Positions 33,359-43,296 of a stretch of 64,000 bases of DNA are shown piece by piece. The notes beneath the pieces are model-generated. The model worked only from the letters and a program-made list of their open reading frames with translations. It had not been told where the DNA came from and searched no databases. Every line of letters starts with the position of its first letter. Within the stretch, counting starts at the first letter, position 1. The stretch is from NCBI GenBank assembly GCA_041650895.1, contig JBAZKF010000001.1:81685-145684 (forward strand), written 5' to 3'. Origin of the DNA: Patescibacteria group bacterium. Lineage in GTDB: Bacteria; Patescibacteriota; Patescibacteriia; 2-01-FULL-39-33. The translations under genes were made by a program, and so were the position numbers.

Positions 33359-33488
33359 AATGCATTAATATTAACACTTATTTGATTTTTGAACAAAAAT
33401 AACGTATATTGTAAGTAACTGTTTTATCTTATTTTAGGTATTTTATTGCTCTTAGAAGCATGCAAGCCATATTCTGTGGATAACTGTC

Positions 33489-33517
33489 TTGACAAAATAA
33501 TCAAGGTGTGCTATAAT
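33489..33517 (+). promoter_or_regulatory. consensus sigma-70 promoter of the GC-rich cassette
   Basis: TTGACA (33489-33494), 17-bp spacer, TATAAT (33512-33517). Shine-Dalgarno GAAGGAG lies 7 nt before the ATG at 33585. Confidence 0.6.
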
Positions 33518-33584
33518 TATATAATGTAGTTTTTGTAATTTTTTGAAGATAGGCGTGGACATTAACAACTGAAGGAGTGTAAGT

Positions 33585-33956
33585 ATGCCTTTGGAAGCCG
33601 AGGAAAACTGGGGACTCTGGTATGACTTGATGGAAACCCCGCCGGAAGTGCCGGATCTGGGACACCAGAAACCGCCACGCCGAAAACGGCTGAAAATCCG
33701 TCTGCCTGGCGGCCGTCGTAAAGTCCTAAAGGGCAAACGTGGCGGTGAAAACGTACCCTGGTATGCAAGGTACAAGGATTCCTGGGGTAGCTTTCCGACA
33801 CGCTCGGAGCGCCTGGACGCGCGCCATGATTTGCGCGAGGCCATAAGGGATGCCGTGGAAGAGGAACCGTCCTCCTTAAAACAACCCCGACGCGAGCTTG
33901 TCTTCGCTTCGTATGGCGGAGACGGCGAGGGCAACGCCGGTTGCCTGATGTACTAA
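33585..33956 (+). CDS. hypothetical basic/proline-rich protein (GC-rich foreign gene)
   Basis: About 58% GC against a genome average of about 42%. Strong Shine-Dalgarno. 123 aa, MPLEAEENWGLWYDLMETPPEV...RRKRLKIRLPGGRRKVLKGKRGG. Confidence 0.5.
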   Translation: MPLEAEENWGLWYDLMETPPEVPDLGHQKPPRRKRLKIRLPGGRRKVLKGKRGGENVPWYARYKDSWGSFPTRSERLDARHDLREAIRDAVEEEPSSLKQPRRELVFASYGGDGEGNAGCLMY

Positions 33957-33964
33957 ACTAACCG

Positions 33965-34324
33965 ATGAAATTGAAATATAAGGAGACTGGTGAGATGGAA
34001 ACAAATCCGATTGGTCGCATTCTCATTATTGTAGGGGTTGCAATGAGCGTGATCATGTTATTCTTTACCATAAGCAATGCGACGAACGACGAGAAAGCCA
34101 GAAAGGTTGCGGAGACCTACGGATTTTCCAGTGTTATGATCATTGACCAAAAAAACGAAATTGACAGCCACGGCAACAGTATCGGCGTATTCTATTGCGT
34201 CGCCACTAACGCCGGTGGCAATCCTGCGGTGGTCAAGGTGATCAAATCGCTGGACGGCGGCGATTGGAAAATCCGCGTTCAAGGCGATATGCCTGATTTC
34301 CCGGCGCCACTAAAGCACCCATAA
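33965..34324 (+). CDS. hypothetical membrane-anchored small protein (GC-rich foreign gene)
   Basis: Shine-Dalgarno AAGGAG. N-terminal transmembrane helix IGRILIIVGVAMSVIMLFFTI. 119 aa. Followed by a terminator. Confidence 0.5.
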   Translation: MKLKYKETGEMETNPIGRILIIVGVAMSVIMLFFTISNATNDEKARKVAETYGFSSVMIIDQKNEIDSHGNSIGVFYCVATNAGGNPAVVKVIKSLDGGDWKIRVQGDMPDFPAPLKHP

Positions 34325-36647: not shown

Positions 36648-36779
36648 AAAGATAATGCTGTTATTTTAGCCGATAGACAAAAATTAGGCAAACTAAAACC
36701 GTTTAAGGCTTCTCTAATTAAAAAAGCTCTGTGCAATATTGAACAGAGCGTAACTATGGATTGCATGCAGTAATAGCAT

Positions 36780-37031
36780 TTATGCCTTTAATGCAGCATC
36801 AATGATTTTCAAAGCGATTTCTTCACTAAACTCGCTTATTAGTTGGCTATATATCTCTTTTGTAACATCAAATCCCGCAGCGATTACCTTAATAGCTTGA
36901 TTCTCACCAAAACCCGCGCTTTGCATTGCGCCATAAATTTTCTTTAAAGCCTCAAAATATCCTTTGGAGTAACTCTTCTTATATCCATCTTCCTATGTCT
37001 CATCCATAGACACTTCTAATGAGTCAGGCAT
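36780..37031 (-). pseudogene. small ORF (83 codons) with an in-frame TAG after codon 12
   Basis: Strong Shine-Dalgarno AAAGGAGG lies 6 nt upstream of the ATG at 37031. The reading frame is MPDSLEVSMDET*EDGYKKSYSKGYFEALKKIYGAMQSAGFGENQAIKVIAAGFDVTKEIYSQLISEFSEEIALKIIDAALKA*. It is absent from the ORF track because of the TAG codon at 36993-36995 (minus strand). Confidence 0.3.
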
Positions 37032-37049
37032 ATTATTCCTCCTTTCTCA

Positions 37050-37502
37050 TTATTCAATACTAAATACTAAAGTATTGGCAGCAACCCAGCAATTTTCAAA
37101 ACATTTTGCCTGCTCTCCAGGCCAACGGAAAATCAATCCATCGGATTTGCCTGACAACCGATTGCATTTGCCGTTCAATTGAATAAATGAAAGAAATGAT
37201 TCTCTGCTTTCCATATAAACCTTATCAGAATAATGTGTCGAAGAATGAGAGGGAGCAATAAGAAAAACAAAAGCCTTGCCGTAACGTTTTTCCAATTCAC
37301 CTTTAATAACACAGCGGAATTCCACACTACCAACAGTAACCGTTTGTGAATGCAAATCTCGCGGATCGTACGCTTCCCATTCCAATGAACAAATATCGCC
37401 ATGTTTTAAAACGGCCGATAAAGCCTCAAGCTCATTACGCTCTTTTGGCAATCTGGCTGTAATTGTGAACAATTTTTTCTCCGGCTCATAATCAAATCTC
37501 AT
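37050..37502 (-). CDS. hypothetical protein (150 aa)
   Basis: Shine-Dalgarno AAAGGAG upstream. Its own sigma-70-like promoter sits at about 37560-37607. No recognisable motif. Confidence 0.45.
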   Translation of the reverse strand: MRFDYEPEKKLFTITARLPKERNELEALSAVLKHGDICSLEWEAYDPRDLHSQTVTVGSVEFRCVIKGELEKRYGKAFVFLIAPSHSSTHYSDKVYMESRESFLSFIQLNGKCNRLSGKSDGLIFRWPGEQAKCFENCWVAANTLVFSIE

Positions 37503-37692
37503 ACCTTGCTCCTTTCTGTCTTTTCGTCTATGCAGTAATTTAAAATCGTAATTTTGTTTTCAAGGTTCGACTAATAGGTCATTTTACCAGATATTTTAAA
37601 ATTGTCAAACTAAAACTGTTTAAGGCTTCTCTGTGTCTTAATATTAAATCAATAATTTAAAAGCAAAAAACGTCTACTCGCTTGAGTAAACG

Positions 37693-38136
37693 TTAAAAAT
37701 CGGAAATAACTACTTGGGAAAAACTGAATTTATCAGCAACAATTTTATAGCTCGGAACTAAGACCTTATGGGCTTGTAAAGGCGCTTGCGACAAATCTTT
37801 ATCATAATCATTGCCGATTACCAACAATTCCTCATCCTTAATGCCAAAAAATCGTAAAATCTGCTGATAAATCTTAGGGTACATGGAAAGCCTGAAAAAA
37901 CCATCGAATATTTCCAAGCCAAAAGGCGCTGTACCATTAAGGGTGGCGGCTAAATCCAATTGCATGTTAGTCAAATCGGAGTCAGAACTGGTAACTGTTT
38001 TAATTTTCAAATTTTTAGCATGCGAAATGAATTCTATAAAGCCCGGCCGTGGCGGCAAAGCATTTTCATAGTCATCAGAACAAAGAATGGTCCCGTAAAC
38101 ATCAAAAGCTATCACTTTTATTTGAGCCATGATCAT
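37693..38136 (-). CDS. HAD-superfamily hydrolase-like protein (short, dehalogenase-like motif I)
   Basis: Motif I IAFDVYGTIL (D-x-Y-G-T). Only 147 aa. Confidence 0.5.
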   Translation of the reverse strand: MIMAQIKVIAFDVYGTILCSDDYENALPPRPGFIEFISHAKNLKIKTVTSSDSDLTNMQLDLAATLNGTAPFGLEIFDGFFRLSMYPKIYQQILRFFGIKDEELLVIGNDYDKDLSQAPLQAHKVLVPSYKIVADKFSFSQVVISDF

Positions 38137-38176
38137 CTCCTTTTATTGTAAAGACATGACTAAACGAACCTTCTAA

Positions 38177-38382
38177 TGCTGTATTTTAAAGATAGCTCGA
38201 ACGCATTTTGGCTGTCCGCCAGAGGCGGACGCAGATTTTCTTCCCGACGAAATCCAATCCTGATTCTGATTTACGGCAATTTCCAGTTTTTCAATGAGTT
38301 AATCATAACTCATTTCAGTAAATTTTTCAAGAGCTGATTTATTGAAAAATTTACTGGGTTTGGCGGCAAATTCTTTTAGCTC
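38177..38382. repeat. composite inverted repeat L: inverted copy of Q (40066-40160) fused to inverted copy of S (40417-40525)
   Basis: 38179-38273 is the reverse complement of 40066-40160 and 38274-38382 is the reverse complement of 40417-40525. Both are essentially identical by eye. Confidence 0.8.
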
Positions 38383-38450
38383 TTTGAAAATTAAATAAAA
38401 AAAGAGGTGGCCGTCAACCGTGTTGACTTCCACCTCGGGTACTAATCGAC

Positions 38451-39824
38451 TTACTCGATTCTATCTAAGAATCCCAAAATCGATTTCTCTAACTCCGGAT
38501 GTCTGCGTATCTTGTCCGCATAGTGCCTTTTCTGCTTATCCGCAGAGTGATACTCGCTGACGATCTCTTGGCGCGCCCGATCCCATTGTTTCTGATCCAT
38601 TCCGGTTTTGTAGATGACCTTGTCTGTTGTGTAGTCGTCATAGCCGGTAATGGTGTCGCCGGGATTCAATCGGTTTGCCGTTACTGTTCCAGGAAACGGC
38701 ACTTCAAAACTGACACGTAACTGGTCGGCTCGAAACGGCAAAGATTCGAGAGCTTGCTTTTCAGCTTCAACATCGGTGGCAGTCATGCCAAGACCGCCGA
38801 TCATGAAATATGCGCGTGTCAGAATTCCAGCTTCGTCGCACAAGCCATAAGCCAACTCAGGATTTCCGGGTCGTTTGCCTCTTTCAGTGCGGACATCAGT
38901 TCGAGCAAATTCCAAGCCCATCATCGCCATAAATATTCCGGCGCGCTTCATGGCCTGCACCATTTCGCGATCCAAATTGAAATCAGGCAGACAGAAAGCG
39001 GGAAACGGACCTCGTTTTTCCATTTGCTGGCAGAGTTCCATTACCCAACCGCGGTCGGCGTTGAATAACGGATTGGCGATGATGTAAACAAGACCCGGTC
39101 CGAATCGTTTATCGAGCGCGCACATCTCATCGACGATATTGGTCGGCGAACGATGTAGGGTCTTGGGCGACATTATCCACGATGAACAATAGTCGCACCG
39201 GCCGTCGCAACCGAATGATCCGGCGATTGTGATACGTTTTGTCGGGTTTTTGATCAGTGTTTCCGGTGGGGCGAAGAGAATTTCATTCTTCGTGAATCTC
39301 GCCATGAACTCCTCAAAACGCAACGGCCACGGCAAGTCATCTAACGGATAAGGAGATTGACAGCCACCAGACAACTCTCTGACTTGAACAACACCTCGTT
39401 TGGCGCTACCAGCAGAGATATCATCCAACAACTGTGGCAATGCTCTCTCGCCTCGTCCCTTTACTACGAAATCGGCTCGTCCCTCTTCAAAAACTACCTT
39501 GGCCATTCTACCGACTCCTGCATGGTATCCGCCGTAAATGATCGGCACCTTCCCCTTGAAATTTTCGGCCACGCGATCGGCCAAAGATTTCGTATAGCTG
39601 TAAGGGAAAAGAGCCACTGCATCACAATCGCCGGCCTTGACGGCGGAGATAATCTGTTCTACTTGTGCGGTATCTTGCCGTACATAGCGAACTGACCAGC
39701 CAGCAAATTGTTCGACGCAAGCCGCAACAAGTTGAGCGCCGATTTCTTCCCGACCGATTCGGGTTTGACCGCTACGATCGGTTACAACCGATAAATCTGT
39801 GTCAACAAAAACAATCGTTGGCAT
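38451..39824 (-). CDS. B12-binding radical SAM protein (class B-like)
   Basis: N-terminal Rossmann-like B12-binding domain. CDGRCDYC (C-x3-C-x2-C) radical SAM cluster motif. 457 aa. GC visibly higher (about 50%) than the flanks. Strong Shine-Dalgarno AAAGGAGGG. Confidence 0.85.
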   Translation of the reverse strand: MPTIVFVDTDLSVVTDRSGQTRIGREEIGAQLVAACVEQFAGWSVRYVRQDTAQVEQIISAVKAGDCDAVALFPYSYTKSLADRVAENFKGKVPIIYGGYHAGVGRMAKVVFEEGRADFVVKGRGERALPQLLDDISAGSAKRGVVQVRELSGGCQSPYPLDDLPWPLRFEEFMARFTKNEILFAPPETLIKNPTKRITIAGSFGCDGRCDYCSSWIMSPKTLHRSPTNIVDEMCALDKRFGPGLVYIIANPLFNADRGWVMELCQQMEKRGPFPAFCLPDFNLDREMVQAMKRAGIFMAMMGLEFARTDVRTERGKRPGNPELAYGLCDEAGILTRAYFMIGGLGMTATDVEAEKQALESLPFRADQLRVSFEVPFPGTVTANRLNPGDTITGYDDYTTDKVIYKTGMDQKQWDRARQEIVSEYHSADKQKRHYADKIRRHPELEKSILGFLDRIE

Positions 39825-39900
39825 AAAACCCTCCTTTCAGTCGAGTTTTGCTAATAACACCTGATGTTTCAAAGAACATCCCTCACATTGGGAATATCCA

Positions 39901-39929
39901 ATTTTAGCAAATATTTATCAAAATGTCAA
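39901..39929 (-). promoter_or_regulatory. sigma-70-like promoter of the radical SAM gene
   Basis: Minus strand TTGACA (39924-39929), 17-bp spacer, TAAAAT (39901-39906). Confidence 0.5.
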
Positions 39930-40018
39930 CCCAAATAAAAAATGTCTGAAATGCGTCAAAAAAAACAGAAATCATAATAATTTCTGCAGTCAAATAAACA
40001 TAAAAATTTTCTTTTACC

Positions 40019-40259
40019 AAAATGCGGTTCGACCCGATATTTTTTCCGGTTCTTTGGCGGTTTTTTAAATCAGAATCAGGATTGGATTTCGTCGGGAAGA
40101 AAATCTGCGTCCGCCTCTGGCGGACAGCCAAAATGCGTTCGAGCTATCTTTAAAATACAGCACCAGAAAGGAATAGTCAAATTTTTCCGCTCCTCGCCAC
40201 CGCAGGCGGCGACCAAATCATACGGAATTTTATAATCAAAAAGTAATTGGCGGTTTTGT
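40019..40259. repeat. repeat block m (40019-40045), P (40046-40065), Q (40066-40160), IRa (40161-40259)
   Basis: m is the reverse complement of 41737-41763. P is the reverse complement of 40542-40561. Q is the reverse complement of 38179-38273. IRa is the reverse complement of 41764-41862 with 1 mismatch in 99. Confidence 0.8.
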
Positions 40260-40338
40260 CTGAATATTAATTCAGGGTAAAAGAAAAATTTTATGTTTAT
40301 TTGTCATTATCAGAATTAAATTATCATTAAAATATCAA

Positions 40339-41899
40339 TATGAAATACTTCATTTACGCTCGCAAGAGCACCGAAGACGAGGATCGTCAGATACTTTCAA
40401 TCGAAGCTCAGATTACTGAGCTAAAAGAATTTGCCGCCAAACCCAGTAAATTTTTCAATAAATCAGCTCTTGAAAAATTTACTGAAATGAGTTATGATTA
40501 ACTCATTGAAAAACTGGAAATTGCCGATTCATTTTTTGAATCAAAAACCGCCAAAGAACCGGGCCGAAAGATTTTCGGCGAAATACTGGCCAGAATAGAG
40601 CAAGGCCAAGCTGATGGCATCCTATCGTGGCATCCAGATCGCTTGGCGCGTAATAGCGTTGACGGTGGCAAGATTATTCATTTGGTTGATAGAGGAGTGA
40701 TAAAGGCCCTCAAATTTCCTTGCTTCTGGTTTGAACCCACCCCGCAAGGATTATTTATGCTAAATATCGCTTTCGGCCAATCAAAATATTTTGTGGACAA
40801 TTTACGGGAGAACGTAAAGCGAGGATTAAGACAAAAGCTAAGGAACGGTGTTTGGCCGTCTTTTGCGCCAGTGGGCTATCTAAACAATGCGAGAACTCGA
40901 GGCATTGATGTGGATACTGTTAAGAGCGACAAAATCAGGAAAGTGTTTGAACTTTACGCCACTGGCAATTATGCGCTTTTGTCTTTAGTTAATTGGTGCG
41001 AAGCTAACGGCTTGACTGGCGGTTATCATCGCAAATTGTCCGTTAATGCGATATTTAGCATGTTACAAAATATTTTCTACCTTGGTTTGATGCGCTACAA
41101 GGGTGAAGTATTTGAGGGCACTCACGAGCCATTAATATCAAAGAAATTGTTTGAAGAGGTGCAAAAAGTGCGCAATACCCGAGCGAGGACACGAAAAAAA
41201 TTACACAGAGAGTTTGCATTTACTGGACTAATGAAATGCTTGTGCGGTTGCTTCATTACCGCAGAAACACAGAAAGGCCACAACTATTATCGTTGTACGA
41301 AAAAACGAGGCGAATGCACTGAAAAGCACTTTTTGCGCGAGGAAGAATTGGAATCACAAATCAAACAATATCTTCAAACAATTGCTTTGAACGACCAAGA
41401 CCAGGAAAAGATTATGATTGAGTTGGACAAAGACGAACTAACAGCCAAAACGCAAGCTCAGACCAATGTTCAAAATCTCAAAAGCGAGTTAGAGAATATT
41501 AATCAGCAATTAGAGAAACTGCTTGATGTCTATTTGAGCGATACAATCTCGACTGACGAATACACCGCTAGAAAACAAAAAATCCTAACTCGCAAGTTAG
41601 AACTTAATGAGAAAATCAAAGATTTTGAACATAATAACTGGTCTTGGGTCGAACCGGCTCGTGAGTTTATTTTATCGCTCAACCAAGCTGATAATCTGCT
41701 ACGAAATTCAGAAAAGTCAGATCTGGCCGCATTTCTAAAAAATATCGGGTCGAACCGCATTTTACAAAACCGCCAATTGCTTTTTGATTATAAAATTCCG
41801 TATGATTTGGTCGCCGCCTGCGGTGGCGAGGAGCGGAAAAATTTGACTATTCCTTTCTGGTGCGCCCAGCTGGACTCGAACCAGCGACCATCAGCTTAA
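40339..41899 (+). pseudogene. large serine recombinase (resolvase/invertase N-domain, recombinase domain, zinc ribbon, coiled coil), disrupted
   Basis: N-terminus MKYFIYARKSTEDEDRQILSIEAQITELKEFAAK carries the catalytic Ser motif. An insertion of about 70 bp with an in-frame TAA at 40498-40500 follows. The frame then resumes as LEIADSFFESKTAKEPG, and a +1 shift in a G4 run (40560-40563) leads into RKIFGEILARIEQGQADGILSWHPDRLARN... (track ORF 40643-41899). The zinc ribbon CLCGCFITAETQKGHNYYRCTKKRGEC is present. The last 42 nt overlap tRNA-Lys. Confidence 0.7.
41737..41862. repeat. inverted repeats m' (41737-41763) and IRb (41764-41862)
   Basis: Reverse complements of 40019-40045 and 40161-40259. 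IRb ends 5 nt into the CCA end of tRNA-Lys. Confidence 0.8.
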
Positions 41900-41933
41900 A
41901 AGGCTGTTGCTCTACCGACTGAGCTATAGGCGC
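41858..41933 (-). tRNA. tRNA-Lys (anticodon UUU), CCA encoded
   Basis: Manual fold of gcgcctatagctcagtcggtagagcaacagccttttaagctgatggtcgctggttcgagtccagctgggcgcacca: 7-bp acceptor stem, D stem gctc/gagc, anticodon loop cuUUUaa, T-loop ttcgagt. Confidence 0.9.
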
Positions 41934-42207: not shown

Positions 42208-42765
42208 TTGGGCAAAATAGGAGAAAAAGCCATGGCCCCGCATTGTCTGCTACCCAATTGTATACTACTCATCTTCCTTTTTCTTGTTGCCTTGCAAATC
42301 ACGCCGTTTATAATTTTTTGGGCCTGGCTAAGCTGTTCCGCGATCAAGGCATTTGTTACCGACAATAAATCCTGGCACTTGAGTAAAAAACAGGATTGGT
42401 TTCTCTATAACTTTTGCCTATACCGATCTTTTCTTTACGAGGTTGTTAGTTTTACGGAACTTAGCGATGATATTGAGCGTGGCTATCAAGCAATAAAAAG
42501 CACCAACAACAATTACTTGGTTGTTATAAGGGATGTACTTATTATTTATCTTATTAACCTCATCATCTTGGCCATCTCATTCTTTGCCCTAACGGTTATA
42601 TTAGTAGTCGTTACCATAACTTTCCCGATCAGTCTTTATGTTTTCCTGGCCATGTCAGGGTTCGCTTTGATCATTGGGACTGGTTATGTGTCCTTACGCC
42701 TGGCGCGTTTCTTCTATCGCCTGCAAAGAAGGCTGAACATATCCGGAGAAAAAATAAAGTTTTAA
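42208..42765 (+). CDS. membrane protein, hypothetical (paralog A)
   Basis: Three predicted transmembrane helices. C-terminal motif LRLARFFYRLQRRLNISGEKIKF shared with the next gene. Confidence 0.5.
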   Translation: MGKIGEKAMAPHCLLPNCILLIFLFLVALQITPFIIFWAWLSCSAIKAFVTDNKSWHLSKKQDWFLYNFCLYRSFLYEVVSFTELSDDIERGYQAIKSTNNNYLVVIRDVLIIYLINLIILAISFFALTVILVVVTITFPISLYVFLAMSGFALIIGTGYVSLRLARFFYRLQRRLNISGEKIKF

Positions 42766-42792: not shown

Positions 42793-43296
42793 ATGCATTC
42801 CTTCATGCCCTTTGCCGGCTGGCTTTTCCTAATGGTCTTTGTCTTGACCCCCGTCTCTTACTACAGCTGTTTGCTTATCAATTGGACTATTCTTTATGTT
42901 AAAGACGAAAAATGGCAAGCCTCCAAAACAATCAGGGATCTGCGTTATTATCTCTGTTGGGAGTGGCTGATTTCTGGAATTCTCGATGTGCTGAACCGAA
43001 CAGAAAATAACTTGCTAGACCTAACAGGAAATAACTATTATGATAACATCTTAAAGGAAGGCATAGACTACTACATCGGAATTCCCTTTATTGCGAATGT
43101 CATTATGTTTATTTTCTTTATTTGCGTTACTCTGGTGAGTCTGATAATTCTTATAGAATTTGGCTTATTCTGGCTCTTAGCAATATTGGGGCTGATACTC
43201 TGTGCCGCGATTTATTACCTTGTTATTCGCTTGATACGCTTCTTCTATCGTATGCAAAAAAAATTAAACAAAAAAGGCAAAGAGGTGGCTTTTTGA
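42793..43296 (+). CDS. membrane protein, hypothetical (paralog B)
   Basis: Shine-Dalgarno GGAGG. Same topology as paralog A. C-terminus VIRLIRFFYRMQKKLNKKGKEVAF. Confidence 0.5.
   Translation: MHSFMPFAGWLFLMVFVLTPVSYYSCLLINWTILYVKDEKWQASKTIRDLRYYLCWEWLISGILDVLNRTENNLLDLTGNNYYDNILKEGIDYYIGIPFIANVIMFIFFICVTLVSLIILIEFGLFWLLAILGLILCAAIYYLVIRLIRFFYRMQKKLNKKGKEVAF

Follow-up and report, generated by a model that had tools for sequence, protein, structure and literature searches.

Four open reading frames (ORFs), all on the minus strand, lie between positions 36780 and 39824 of a 64,000-nt stretch of DNA (the window; all positions given here refer to it) from a metagenome-assembled genome (MAG) of 957,791 bp that belongs to the Patescibacteria, or candidate phyla radiation (CPR). 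They comprise a gene for a radical S-adenosylmethionine (SAM) enzyme, a HAD-like gene, an ORF of 150 codons (ORF150) and a small ORF, with three glycosyltransferase (GT4) genes to their left and a recombinase gene with inverted repeats to their right. A sequence-only reading of the locus had placed these ORFs and neighbours correctly, and had taken the four ORFs as one gene string, acquired as a unit and possibly devoted to the modification of a glycan or lipid. The question raised by this locus is, then, whether the four genes arrived and act together. We consider it probable that the region is a patchwork and not an operon, in which the radical SAM gene is the single-gene cargo of a serine-recombinase element integrated at a tRNA-Lys gene and the other three genes lie outside that element.

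The probable integrated element and its cargo slot

The interval from about 38171 to 41863 (about 3.7 kb) reads as an integrated large-serine-recombinase element at the 3' end of tRNA-Lys(UUU), with the radical SAM gene as cargo. Along the minus strand the order is tRNA..GCACCA and, past this boundary, the e sequence, the recombinase, e', D', c', b', a', the slot, F*, D and GCA, after which the host sequence resumes with the HAD-like gene. From right to left, the features are the following.

41858-41933, minus strand: tRNA-Lys(UUU), at which the element is integrated and which forms its right boundary; the tRNA 3' end lies under the last 42 nt of the recombinase ORF
40340-41899, plus strand: large serine recombinase pseudogene
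up to 40259: segment e, a 99% inverted copy of 41764-41863, the last 100 nt of the recombinase ORF
40066-40159: segment D, followed by GCACCA and then by e
39991-40065: segments a, b and c, short inverted copies of 40276-40303, 41737-41763 and 40543-62
39966-39986, minus strand: frame hairpin CAGAAATTATTATGATTTCTG plus a T-run, terminator-like, also present in the related locus L011 despite its different cargo
39929->39901, minus strand: radical SAM promoter, TTGACA-17-TAAAAT, with a TG-extended -10 (11/12 consensus matches)
38451-39824, minus strand: radical SAM gene, cargo of the element (457 residues, MFA5124321.1), with a Shine-Dalgarno (SD) sequence AGGAGG at 39830-39835 and an N-terminal Rossmann domain of the B12-binding type
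38397-38436, minus strand: intrinsic terminator of the radical SAM gene, a two-tier hairpin (free energy -21.7 kcal/mol, z = -4.1) followed by U7
38274-38382: segment f', a 100% identical inverted copy of 40418-40526 (109 nt) of the recombinase ORF
38293-38358: double hairpin of f' (66 nt), with a promoter-like TTGAAA-17-TATGAT (38330->38302) facing the HAD-like gene
38171-38273: segment d', the left terminal block, a 98% inverted copy of D (40066-40168), ending in GCA, a partial tRNA 3' terminus

A short repeat of the tRNA terminus (2-6 nt) delimits the element; the window has GCACCA on the tRNA side and GCA at the opposite end. The left limit of the element falls between the radical SAM and HAD-like genes, leaving the radical SAM cassette inside and the HAD-like gene, ORF150 and the small ORF outside. 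The two traits of a tRNA-targeting integrative element, a tRNA-adjacent recombinase and a tRNA-terminus repeat at the element ends, are both found. Inverted repeats I1-I5 and I8 flank the radical SAM gene; the source of a lies upstream of the recombinase start and the sources of b and c inside its ORF, an arrangement that is family-wide. The sequence D-GCACCA-e would equal the junction of the circularised element, similar to an attP site, and the empty site is predicted as tRNA-GCA joined directly to TTAGAAGG. Segment D was also considered as a pseudo-tRNA and rejected, since neither ARAGORN nor Rfam reports one and no cloverleaf could be built by eye. Rfam searches of the window and of 38.1-42 kb, under both gathering and E-value thresholds, returned tRNA only and nothing over the non-coding block.

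The slot (38383-39990) contains a terminator-like hairpin, a near-consensus promoter, an SD sequence, the radical SAM ORF and an intrinsic terminator, so that the gene is an insulated, self-contained single-gene expression cassette with its own promoter and terminator. The proposal that the radical SAM gene and ORF150 each have their own TTGACA/TAAAAT promoter is borne out, as both match the consensus at 11/12 positions and a scan of 36.5-40.4 kb finds exactly these two promoters at that level. The radical SAM gene would have been acquired horizontally as a single-gene cargo, to be expressed on its own.

The slot was delimited by comparison with 80 metagenome loci (L049-L128) and the close relatives L010-L012. 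These three relatives are intact and have the same tRNA-Lys overlap and the same e/e' repeat. In L011, the recombinase is 90% identical, the target is the same tRNA-Lys and the d'f' and a-e blocks are 93-97% identical, and the slot holds a GC-rich gene of 505 codons instead of the radical SAM gene. This other cargo (L011 438-1955, minus strand) has a GC content of 0.54, or 0.68 at third codon positions (GC3), and no Pfam match; its C-terminal ..LVHPDKH.. resembles the HPD motif of the J-domain.

Across the larger set, an opposite-strand tRNA gene lies at, or overlaps, the end of the recombinase ORF in 50 of the 67 loci with at least 60 nt of 3' sequence, and the targeted tRNAs cover 14 amino-acid identities (Leu, Ala, Lys, Arg, Val, Ile, Met, Gln, Tyr, Glu, Phe, Ser and others). 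The C-terminal ..PFWCAQ.. of the recombinase is encoded by the antisense of the tRNA 3' acceptor end, with the Trp coming from CCA. Just upstream of the recombinase start, the e/e' inverted repeat (about 100 nt, mostly 97-100% identical) is present in 64/64 loci, and the 27-nt b/b' pair usually accompanies it in the loci examined. Further upstream (0.8-2.4 kb from the recombinase), about 55 loci have a d'f' composite, formed by an inverted D of about 95 nt joined directly to inverted ORF positions +85..+119. The end of d' falls within ..GCA(C)(CA), a motif that equals the tRNA terminus and the start of e, in the window as in 42 related loci, and the flank past d' is random (4.05/16 matches).

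The slot so defined (0.5-1.8 kb) holds one ORF in each of 48 loci, on the strand opposite to the recombinase in 41 of them. Counting the radical SAM enzyme of the window, the slot proteins number 49 and form 45 BLASTP clusters, and their Pfam matches (SDR, subtilase, DHODH, IS200 transposase, HisG, methyltransferase, APH, asparaginase, a NUDIX protein, cyclodipeptide synthase and others) occur once each. The difference between slot GC and host-flank GC has a standard deviation of 0.087 and exceeds 0.05 in 13 of 32 cases (for example, 0.53 vs 0.36 and 0.34 vs 0.57), while the recombinase GC stays near 0.40 (range 0.36-0.48). Tandem arrays also exist, with three cassettes in L095 (1-4081) and two in L049 (1-2714, one of them DapB); array cassettes have one gene each, all in the same orientation, and junction modules of the form a b (c u3') f'. 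As a position for single-gene cargo, the slot is hypervariable. The earlier suggestion that the radical SAM gene is acquired cargo tied to the recombinase and the inverted repeats stands in this form, given that the gene fills a slot defined across the recombinase family.

A radical SAM gene 87% identical to that of the window is found in L007, next to a tRNA gene (probably tRNA-Lys), 185 nt from the tRNA 3' end and with no recombinase. Its homology to the window covers only 38368-39985, that is, the promoter, the ORF and the terminator. The L007 cassette retains about 30 nt of left-frame sequence (...AAAGAGCTAA), which is also present in L011 and is here fused directly to the frame hairpin CAGAAATTATCATGATTTCTG and its T-run. 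The hairpin is found, in this locus, at the opposite end of the cassette from its place in the window and L011, and a degenerate second copy lies upstream of the radical SAM promoter. The fusion is the permutation expected from a circular or array junction and suggests that the cassettes move; the junction of a cassette circle is predicted as ...AAAGAGCTAA joined to CAGAAATTAT...

The recombinase of the window has the Pfam domains Resolvase, Recombinase and Zn_ribbon_recom; its best NCBIfam matches, XisF and CcrB, are far under cut-off (82/375 bits), and its family counts more than 7,700 matches. The frame (40340-41899) is broken by a 66-nt insertion at 40442-40507, with an in-frame TAA (40499-40501) after codon 53, which separates the catalytic Ser10 from the rest of the protein. 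The insertion is formed by two perfect hairpins (15-bp and 9-bp stems, free energy -23.2 kcal/mol, z = -8.5), and its removal gives a protein of 497 residues, 89-91% identical over the full length to intact homologues of 497 residues. The window is the one locus, of the 49 aligned, where the double hairpin interrupts the recombinase ORF; in a minority of loci (L011, L049, L059, L119, L094 and L055) a similar hairpin is found in the f' copy. To judge from the broken frame, the window recombinase is a pseudogene, a member of the family by descent and non-functional here. We infer that the insertion was copied by gene conversion or recombination between inverted repeats, in which case the f' repeat would have supplied the double hairpin, stop codon included, that inactivated the gene. 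Since the recombinase appears to be a pseudogene, the element is probably immobile and its cargo fixed in place. Recoding was considered for this TAA and for an in-frame TAG of the small ORF (see below), and was rejected since the intact recombinase homologues are entirely without the 66-nt insert. An independent Logan contig (L009, from SRR8542065) corresponds to window positions 38353-40022 and ends 30 nt (k-1) into the repeat, 6 nt of the insert included; as a break at 30 nt is what a k = 31 graph gives at a branch, the insert-bearing sequence must have two contexts in the reads.

The radical SAM enzyme

The C-x3-C-x2-C motif and the B12-binding domain attributed to the cargo protein are both confirmed: C206, C210 and C213 are invariant among 19 sequences, and both Pfam domains are above cut-off (Radical_SAM PF04055, 42.3 bits vs 29.5; B12-binding PF02310, 41.4 bits vs 32.1, residues 27-132). 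The motif, the PF04055 match and TIM-barrel fold matches to many radical SAM structures place it in the radical SAM superfamily. In its AlphaFold2 model (pLDDT 88, pTM 0.88), an N-terminal domain of five strands and five helices (residues 3-137) precedes the barrel. In the family alignment the GG-x-H and G-R/E-G-E motifs, typical of B12-domain radical SAM proteins, are invariant or nearly so. As predicted from profiles and model, the protein is of class-B architecture (a B12 domain plus a radical SAM domain).

The attempt to place the enzyme in a class-B subfamily by profile and structure succeeded for the architecture and reached no curated subfamily among those tested (ladderane lipid radical SAM, BchE, HpnJ, HpnR, PhpK, BzaD, QCMT, KedN5 and AprD4). 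The NCBIfam scores, in bits over the cut-off, are 60.8/360 for the ladderane-type lipid model, 57.3/481 for BchE, 47.4/575 for P-methyltransferase, 33.1/578 for HpnJ and 25.5/500 for AprD4. The enzyme is like the known class-B proteins (TsrM, QCMT/MgmA, OxsB, TokK and the BchE/HpnJ type) in having an N-terminal Rossmann domain of the B12 type and a CxxxCxxC TIM-barrel core, with a Foldseek probability of 1.0 for the fold matches, and differs from them in falling under every curated subfamily cut-off (best 61/360 bits). It is not a MiaB-like housekeeping enzyme, as it has no UPF0004 or TRAM match (PF00919, PF01938), no N-terminal three-Cys cluster and no MiaB/RimO model among its NCBIfam matches; MiaB is a generic fold neighbour only (Foldseek TM score 0.56).

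The closest solved structure is AprD4 (PDB 6fd2), a radical SAM 1,2-diol dehydratase. A profile of the family finds it in the PDB with an E-value of 1.6e-11, over the radical SAM core only (residues 197-410), together with 9ccb (QCMT), and the Foldseek ranking puts it first (TM score 0.68), followed by TsrM, MiaB, QCMT, OxsB, TokK and RimO. A direct sequence search of the PDB returned SDR matches only, which were discarded as spurious. AprD4 has a similar length (about 455 residues) and the same two-domain layout; the identity is 16%, the sequence match being limited to the core. AprD4 is encoded within an aminoglycoside gene cluster and acts together with a partner reductase; the radical SAM gene of the window stands alone.

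It is possible, if on the doubtful side, that the enzyme is a cobalamin-independent protein of the AprD4 type (a dehydratase, a lyase or an enzyme of another rearrangement), whose N-terminal domain would be structural or substrate-binding. AprD4 ranks best by profile as well as by fold, and CPR bacteria are not known to make B12. AprD4 itself provides a precedent, since it clusters with B12-dependent radical SAM enzymes and yet binds no cobalamin (PMC12931638, a 2026 review). Several observations speak for a cobalamin-binding domain instead: the Pfam B12-binding match exceeds its gathering threshold, the two motifs are conserved, the AprD4 model of NCBIfam gives 25 bits vs a cut-off of 500, TsrM, QCMT, OxsB and TokK come close behind in the fold ranking, and the N-terminal domain of the model has the five strands and five helices of the Rossmann domain of class I cobalamin binders (PMC12931638).

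From the sequence, cobalamin use by the enzyme has, in our estimate, slightly less than an even chance, and C-methylation via methylcobalamin would be the single most likely outcome, at a probability just short of one half. If cobalamin is used, the host, whose genome has about 0.96 Mb, must obtain the cofactor by scavenging. In the inferred chemistry, a [4Fe-4S] cluster on C206, C210 and C213 would cleave SAM reductively, and the resulting 5'-deoxyadenosyl radical would remove a hydrogen from the substrate. Because the gene travels alone, the substrate presumably occurs in many CPR hosts and would be processed without partner enzymes. The invariant basic residues of the family alignment (R312, R315-G-K317-R318, R337 and R370) may point to an anionic substrate, for instance a nucleic acid or a phosphorylated small molecule. 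Three extra cysteines, C265 (invariant) along with C36 and C329 (nearly invariant), also stand out in this alignment and could hold an auxiliary cluster.

The enzyme belongs to a rare Patescibacteria-only family. Its close relatives number only about 18 proteins, with 42-92% identity, and the named ones come from Patescibacteria (Moranbacteria and Saccharibacteria); outside this CPR clade the identity is 30% or less and the scores drop to those of generic B12-binding radical SAM proteins (E about 1e-29). A scan of the GTDB species representatives with the family gave one true relative, from a Saccharibacteria genome (52% identity), the remaining matches having 18-26% identity and coming mostly from Smithella/Syntrophaceae. 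Phage collections gave no match, and the plasmid matches listed have 23-27% identity. The genomic contexts of the homologues are varied.

L001/L002: beside a SAM methyltransferase and a TrmB regulator
L003: between ribosomal protein genes
L004: beside a TrmB regulator
L007: 3' of a tRNA gene and 5' of a Bro-N gene
L008: convergent with dnaE
L129: near a TrmB regulator

Neither a glycosyltransferase nor ORF150 recurs as a neighbour in the other contexts examined. A regulator of the TrmB family (PF01978) lies one or two genes from the homologue in three of about nine independent contexts (L001/L002, L004-L006 and L129). As a conserved partner of the enzyme it was dropped, being limited to these three contexts and absent from the window.

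Competing explanations of the locus

Several points weigh against the radical SAM gene as mobile cargo and against the assignments made for its product. No excision or circular form of the element was seen, and its recombination sites and polarity are deduced from the repeat geometry only. The tRNA-adjacent gene of L007, having no recombinase beside it, can be read as an ancestral native arrangement, and at the level of GC3 the radical SAM gene does not stand out in the window, which means that the acquisition was not recent or came from a similar genome. The closest solved relative of the enzyme binds no cobalamin, and the look at B12 uptake genes covered 64 kb of a 958-kb genome. Additionally, in locus L014 a small HAD-fold gene is a neighbour of the radical SAM homologue, which leaves room for a loose functional link.

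The sequence-only reading had presented GC content and codon usage as signs of a foreign gene, to be given up if both proved ordinary. The radical SAM gene does have about 50% GC, as stated: the computed value is 0.502, the third highest among the 59 window ORFs (mean 0.442, standard deviation 0.038, z = +1.58). The excess falls in the first and second codon positions (GC1 = 0.57, GC2 = 0.43), and the elevated GC therefore reflects amino-acid composition. As GC3, and codon usage with it, is not atypical (0.511, z = +0.52), the compositional argument for the acquisition of this gene fails.

This ordinary GC3 would also suit an unlikely alternative, namely that the radical SAM gene is a native neighbour of tRNA-Lys and that the recombinase element inserted between the two, the left repeat block being secondary. 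L007 shows such an order (tRNA 3' end, 185 nt, radical SAM gene, no recombinase), and many slot genes elsewhere resemble ordinary metabolic genes. The comparative data argue otherwise: d'f' bounds the far side of the slot in about 55 loci, with the tRNA-terminus repeat beyond the slot; L011 has the same frame around a different cargo; in composition, slot genes are often foreign to the flanking sequence; and the enzyme family has only about 18 members, patchily distributed. As for L007, its 185-nt spacer is not found in the window, and its fusion of frame sequence and hairpin points to a passage from the element to L007. Single-gene cargo is, accordingly, the reading that we retain in what follows, together with the outside position of the other three genes, whose features are these.

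37693-38136, minus strand: HAD-like gene, a small cap-less HAD-fold hydrolase with the motif FDVYGT, just beyond the left end of the element
37694->37669, minus strand: terminator-like hairpin (11 pairs plus a T-run) directly 3' of the HAD-like gene
37581-37632, minus strand: ORF150 promoter block, a duplicate of the promoter block of the third glycosyltransferase (36663-36715)
37608->37581, minus strand: ORF150 promoter, TTGACA-16-TAAAAT (11/12)
37050-37502, minus strand: ORF150, an ORFan of 150 residues, GC3 0.325, outside the element
36780-37031, minus strand: small ORF, a frame of 84 codons with an SD sequence AGGAGG at 37038-37043 and an ATG at 37031; the ORF of 48 residues originally listed is 36780-36926

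That these three and the radical SAM gene form one acquired module, modifying a glycan or lipid of the three-glycosyltransferase locus, we regard as very unlikely. The common orientation and the adjacency to three GT4 genes invite this idea, the top NCBIfam match of the enzyme is a 'lipid biosynthesis B12-binding/radical SAM' model, and the L014 homologue has a HAD-fold gene beside it. The lipid-model match, however, reaches 61 bits vs a cut-off of 360, the HAD-fold gene that adjoins the L014 homologue has no detectable homology to the HAD-like gene of the window, and the element boundary separates the radical SAM gene from the HAD-like gene. The gap between these two genes holds the intrinsic terminator followed by the 212-nt repeat block 38171-38382, and a second terminator follows the HAD-like gene. 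ORF150 is an ORFan, the small ORF is interrupted, and none of the three genes co-occurs with the radical SAM gene in about ten other contexts, where glycosyltransferase neighbours are likewise missing. With these terminators, two consensus promoters and no co-occurrence elsewhere, the supposed gene string resolves into separate transcription units. The glycan or lipid role had as its sole basis the adjacency to the glycosyltransferases, an accident of where the element integrated, and is likewise not supported. In such genomes, same-strand adjacency and good SD sites are no evidence for an operon. Strong SD sequences had in fact been claimed for all four ORFs; they precede the radical SAM gene, the HAD-like gene and ORF150 (AGGAGG/AAGGAG), and the claim fails for the small ORF as listed, since the SD sequence associated with it precedes the ATG at 37031 and the 48-residue ORF begins at an internal Met with none.

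The HAD-like gene, ORF150 and the small ORF would instead be independent low-GC3 additions, with promoter and terminator signals of their own. The compositionally odd genes of the region are, indeed, the HAD-like gene (GC 0.374, GC3 z = -1.4) and ORF150 (GC 0.389, GC3 z = -2.2). The HAD-like protein has a weak match to Pfam PF00702 (E 6e-8); the NCBI version has 145 residues (MAQIK), with a likely start at 38130. For ORF150, no homologue besides itself was found among 5.8 billion proteins, and a search of 1.84 billion representatives gave one weak match (33% identity, E 8.7e-5); its single-sequence AlphaFold2 model (pLDDT 34) is useless. Neither ORF150 nor the small ORF has a Pfam match, the small ORF also has no NCBIfam or PADLOC match, and PHROGs and PADLOC scans of the HAD-like gene, ORF150, the small ORF, the radical SAM gene and their neighbours gave nothing meaningful. 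The two promoter blocks (36663-36715 and 37581-37632) are 89% identical over 35 nt, with about 60 nt alignable. As the block is duplicated around ORF150 and the small ORF, these two look like an insertion of about 0.9 kb behind a duplicated glycosyltransferase promoter block. The frame of the small ORF has an in-frame TAG after codon 12 of 84, and it is probably a recent pseudogene.

An assembly artefact, by chimeric joins or a mixture of strains in the metagenome, could be supposed behind the inverted-repeat mosaic and the recombinase stop, as the arms are 100% identical in a MAG and short contigs of related samples break at the repeats. This is scarcely credible: the architecture is the same in each of the 64 independent assemblies, from many samples, that have enough upstream sequence, the arms co-vary between loci, and the end of L009, 30 nt into the repeat, is expected only with two read contexts for the insert-bearing sequence.

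Related systems and further observations

The most interesting object at the locus is the element family that carries the orphan radical SAM gene. It appears to be undescribed, a literature search for it having found no paper. Tentatively, with somewhat less confidence than doubt, we propose it as a new class of CPR element, in which a large serine recombinase, its ORF completed by the antisense of the tRNA, integrates at the CCA ends of many tRNA genes; perfectly kept 100-nt inverted repeats would frame the element, with an inner attP-like copy of its end junction, and an integron-like slot, in some cases a tandem array, would capture unrelated single genes with promoters of their own. Such elements would be a principal vehicle of patchy metabolic additions in Patescibacteria, the orphan radical SAM gene among them.

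Among known systems, the tycheposons of Prochlorococcus are cargo-carrying elements that target tRNA genes and bring niche and metabolic genes into streamlined genomes; their recombinases are mostly of the tyrosine type, the direct repeats at their flanks are partial tRNA sequences of about 40 nt, and both replication genes and cargo of several genes are frequent (bioRxiv 10.1101/2020.12.28.424599). The element of the window is also a tRNA-targeting, cargo-carrying element of a streamlined genome, and differs in its large serine recombinase, with an ORF that extends into the tRNA, its 100-nt inverted repeats, its single-gene slot and its tRNA repeat of only 2-6 nt. Integrons, formed by the tyrosine recombinase IntI, an attI site and promoterless cassettes with attC sites, offer another comparison. 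Shared with them are a recombinase beside unrelated single-gene cassettes, in one orientation and with structured junction modules (L095 and L049), and the circular-cassette signature of the L007 junction. The element family is nevertheless not an integron: its recombinase is a serine recombinase, its cassettes have their own promoters, its platform lies at tRNA genes and its junctions are inverted segments of the recombinase gene instead of attC. With other large serine recombinases (XisF, CcrB/CcrC and phage integrases) the family has in common the Resolvase, Recombinase and Zn_ribbon_recom domains; it is set apart by an ORF that overlaps the tRNA 3' end, by nested complementary segments and by scores far below the cut-offs.

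In the element family there is a concrete way for single genes to enter the tRNA loci of Patescibacteria by horizontal transfer, and it may explain the patchy accessory metabolism of these bacteria. A stand-alone mobile radical SAM cassette must act on something that its hosts already have, and is a compact entry point to unknown radical SAM chemistry. Large serine recombinases whose attachment sites can be inferred (the tRNA 3' end and D-GCACCA-e) are also of interest for genome engineering.

The complementary segments of the recombinase region are a further peculiarity. Between 40010 and 41863 there are about 12 conserved pairs of long-range complementary segments, ten of them perfectly nested (11-18 nt), with the a/a' and the 100-nt e/e' pairs crossing the nested ones. 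Pairing was counted across the 49 aligned loci, with shifted partners as controls, and the Watson-Crick fractions are as follows.

e pair: 0.97, with more than 1,000 double-change cells
b, c, j and m pairs: 0.93-0.96
g, h, i, k, l and n pairs: 0.70-0.89
shifted-partner controls: 0.14-0.57

The arms of the segments co-vary between loci, and over the same 49 loci there is no excess of G:T over A:C mismatches in the pairs. A fold of RNA or single-stranded DNA, or concerted evolution, may account for this pattern. The nesting suggests a single-stranded (RNA or DNA) folded form in the regulation or movement of the element.

Other features of the window lie further from the element. The first and second glycosyltransferase genes, which are minus-strand genes, are separated by two plus-strand ORFs: 33585-33956, for a basic protein of 123 residues, and 33965-34324, which weakly matches a single PHROG family of unknown function. 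The stretch 33452-34324 is GC-richer, has overlapping ORFs on both strands and gives no Rfam match even at E = 1. Just past tRNA-Lys, two more plus-strand ORFs, 42208-42765 (185 residues) and 42793-43296 (167 residues), have no Pfam match and share a direct repeat of 43 nt (72% identity) near their 3' ends, and downstream of the second is a protein of 375 residues, also with no Pfam match.

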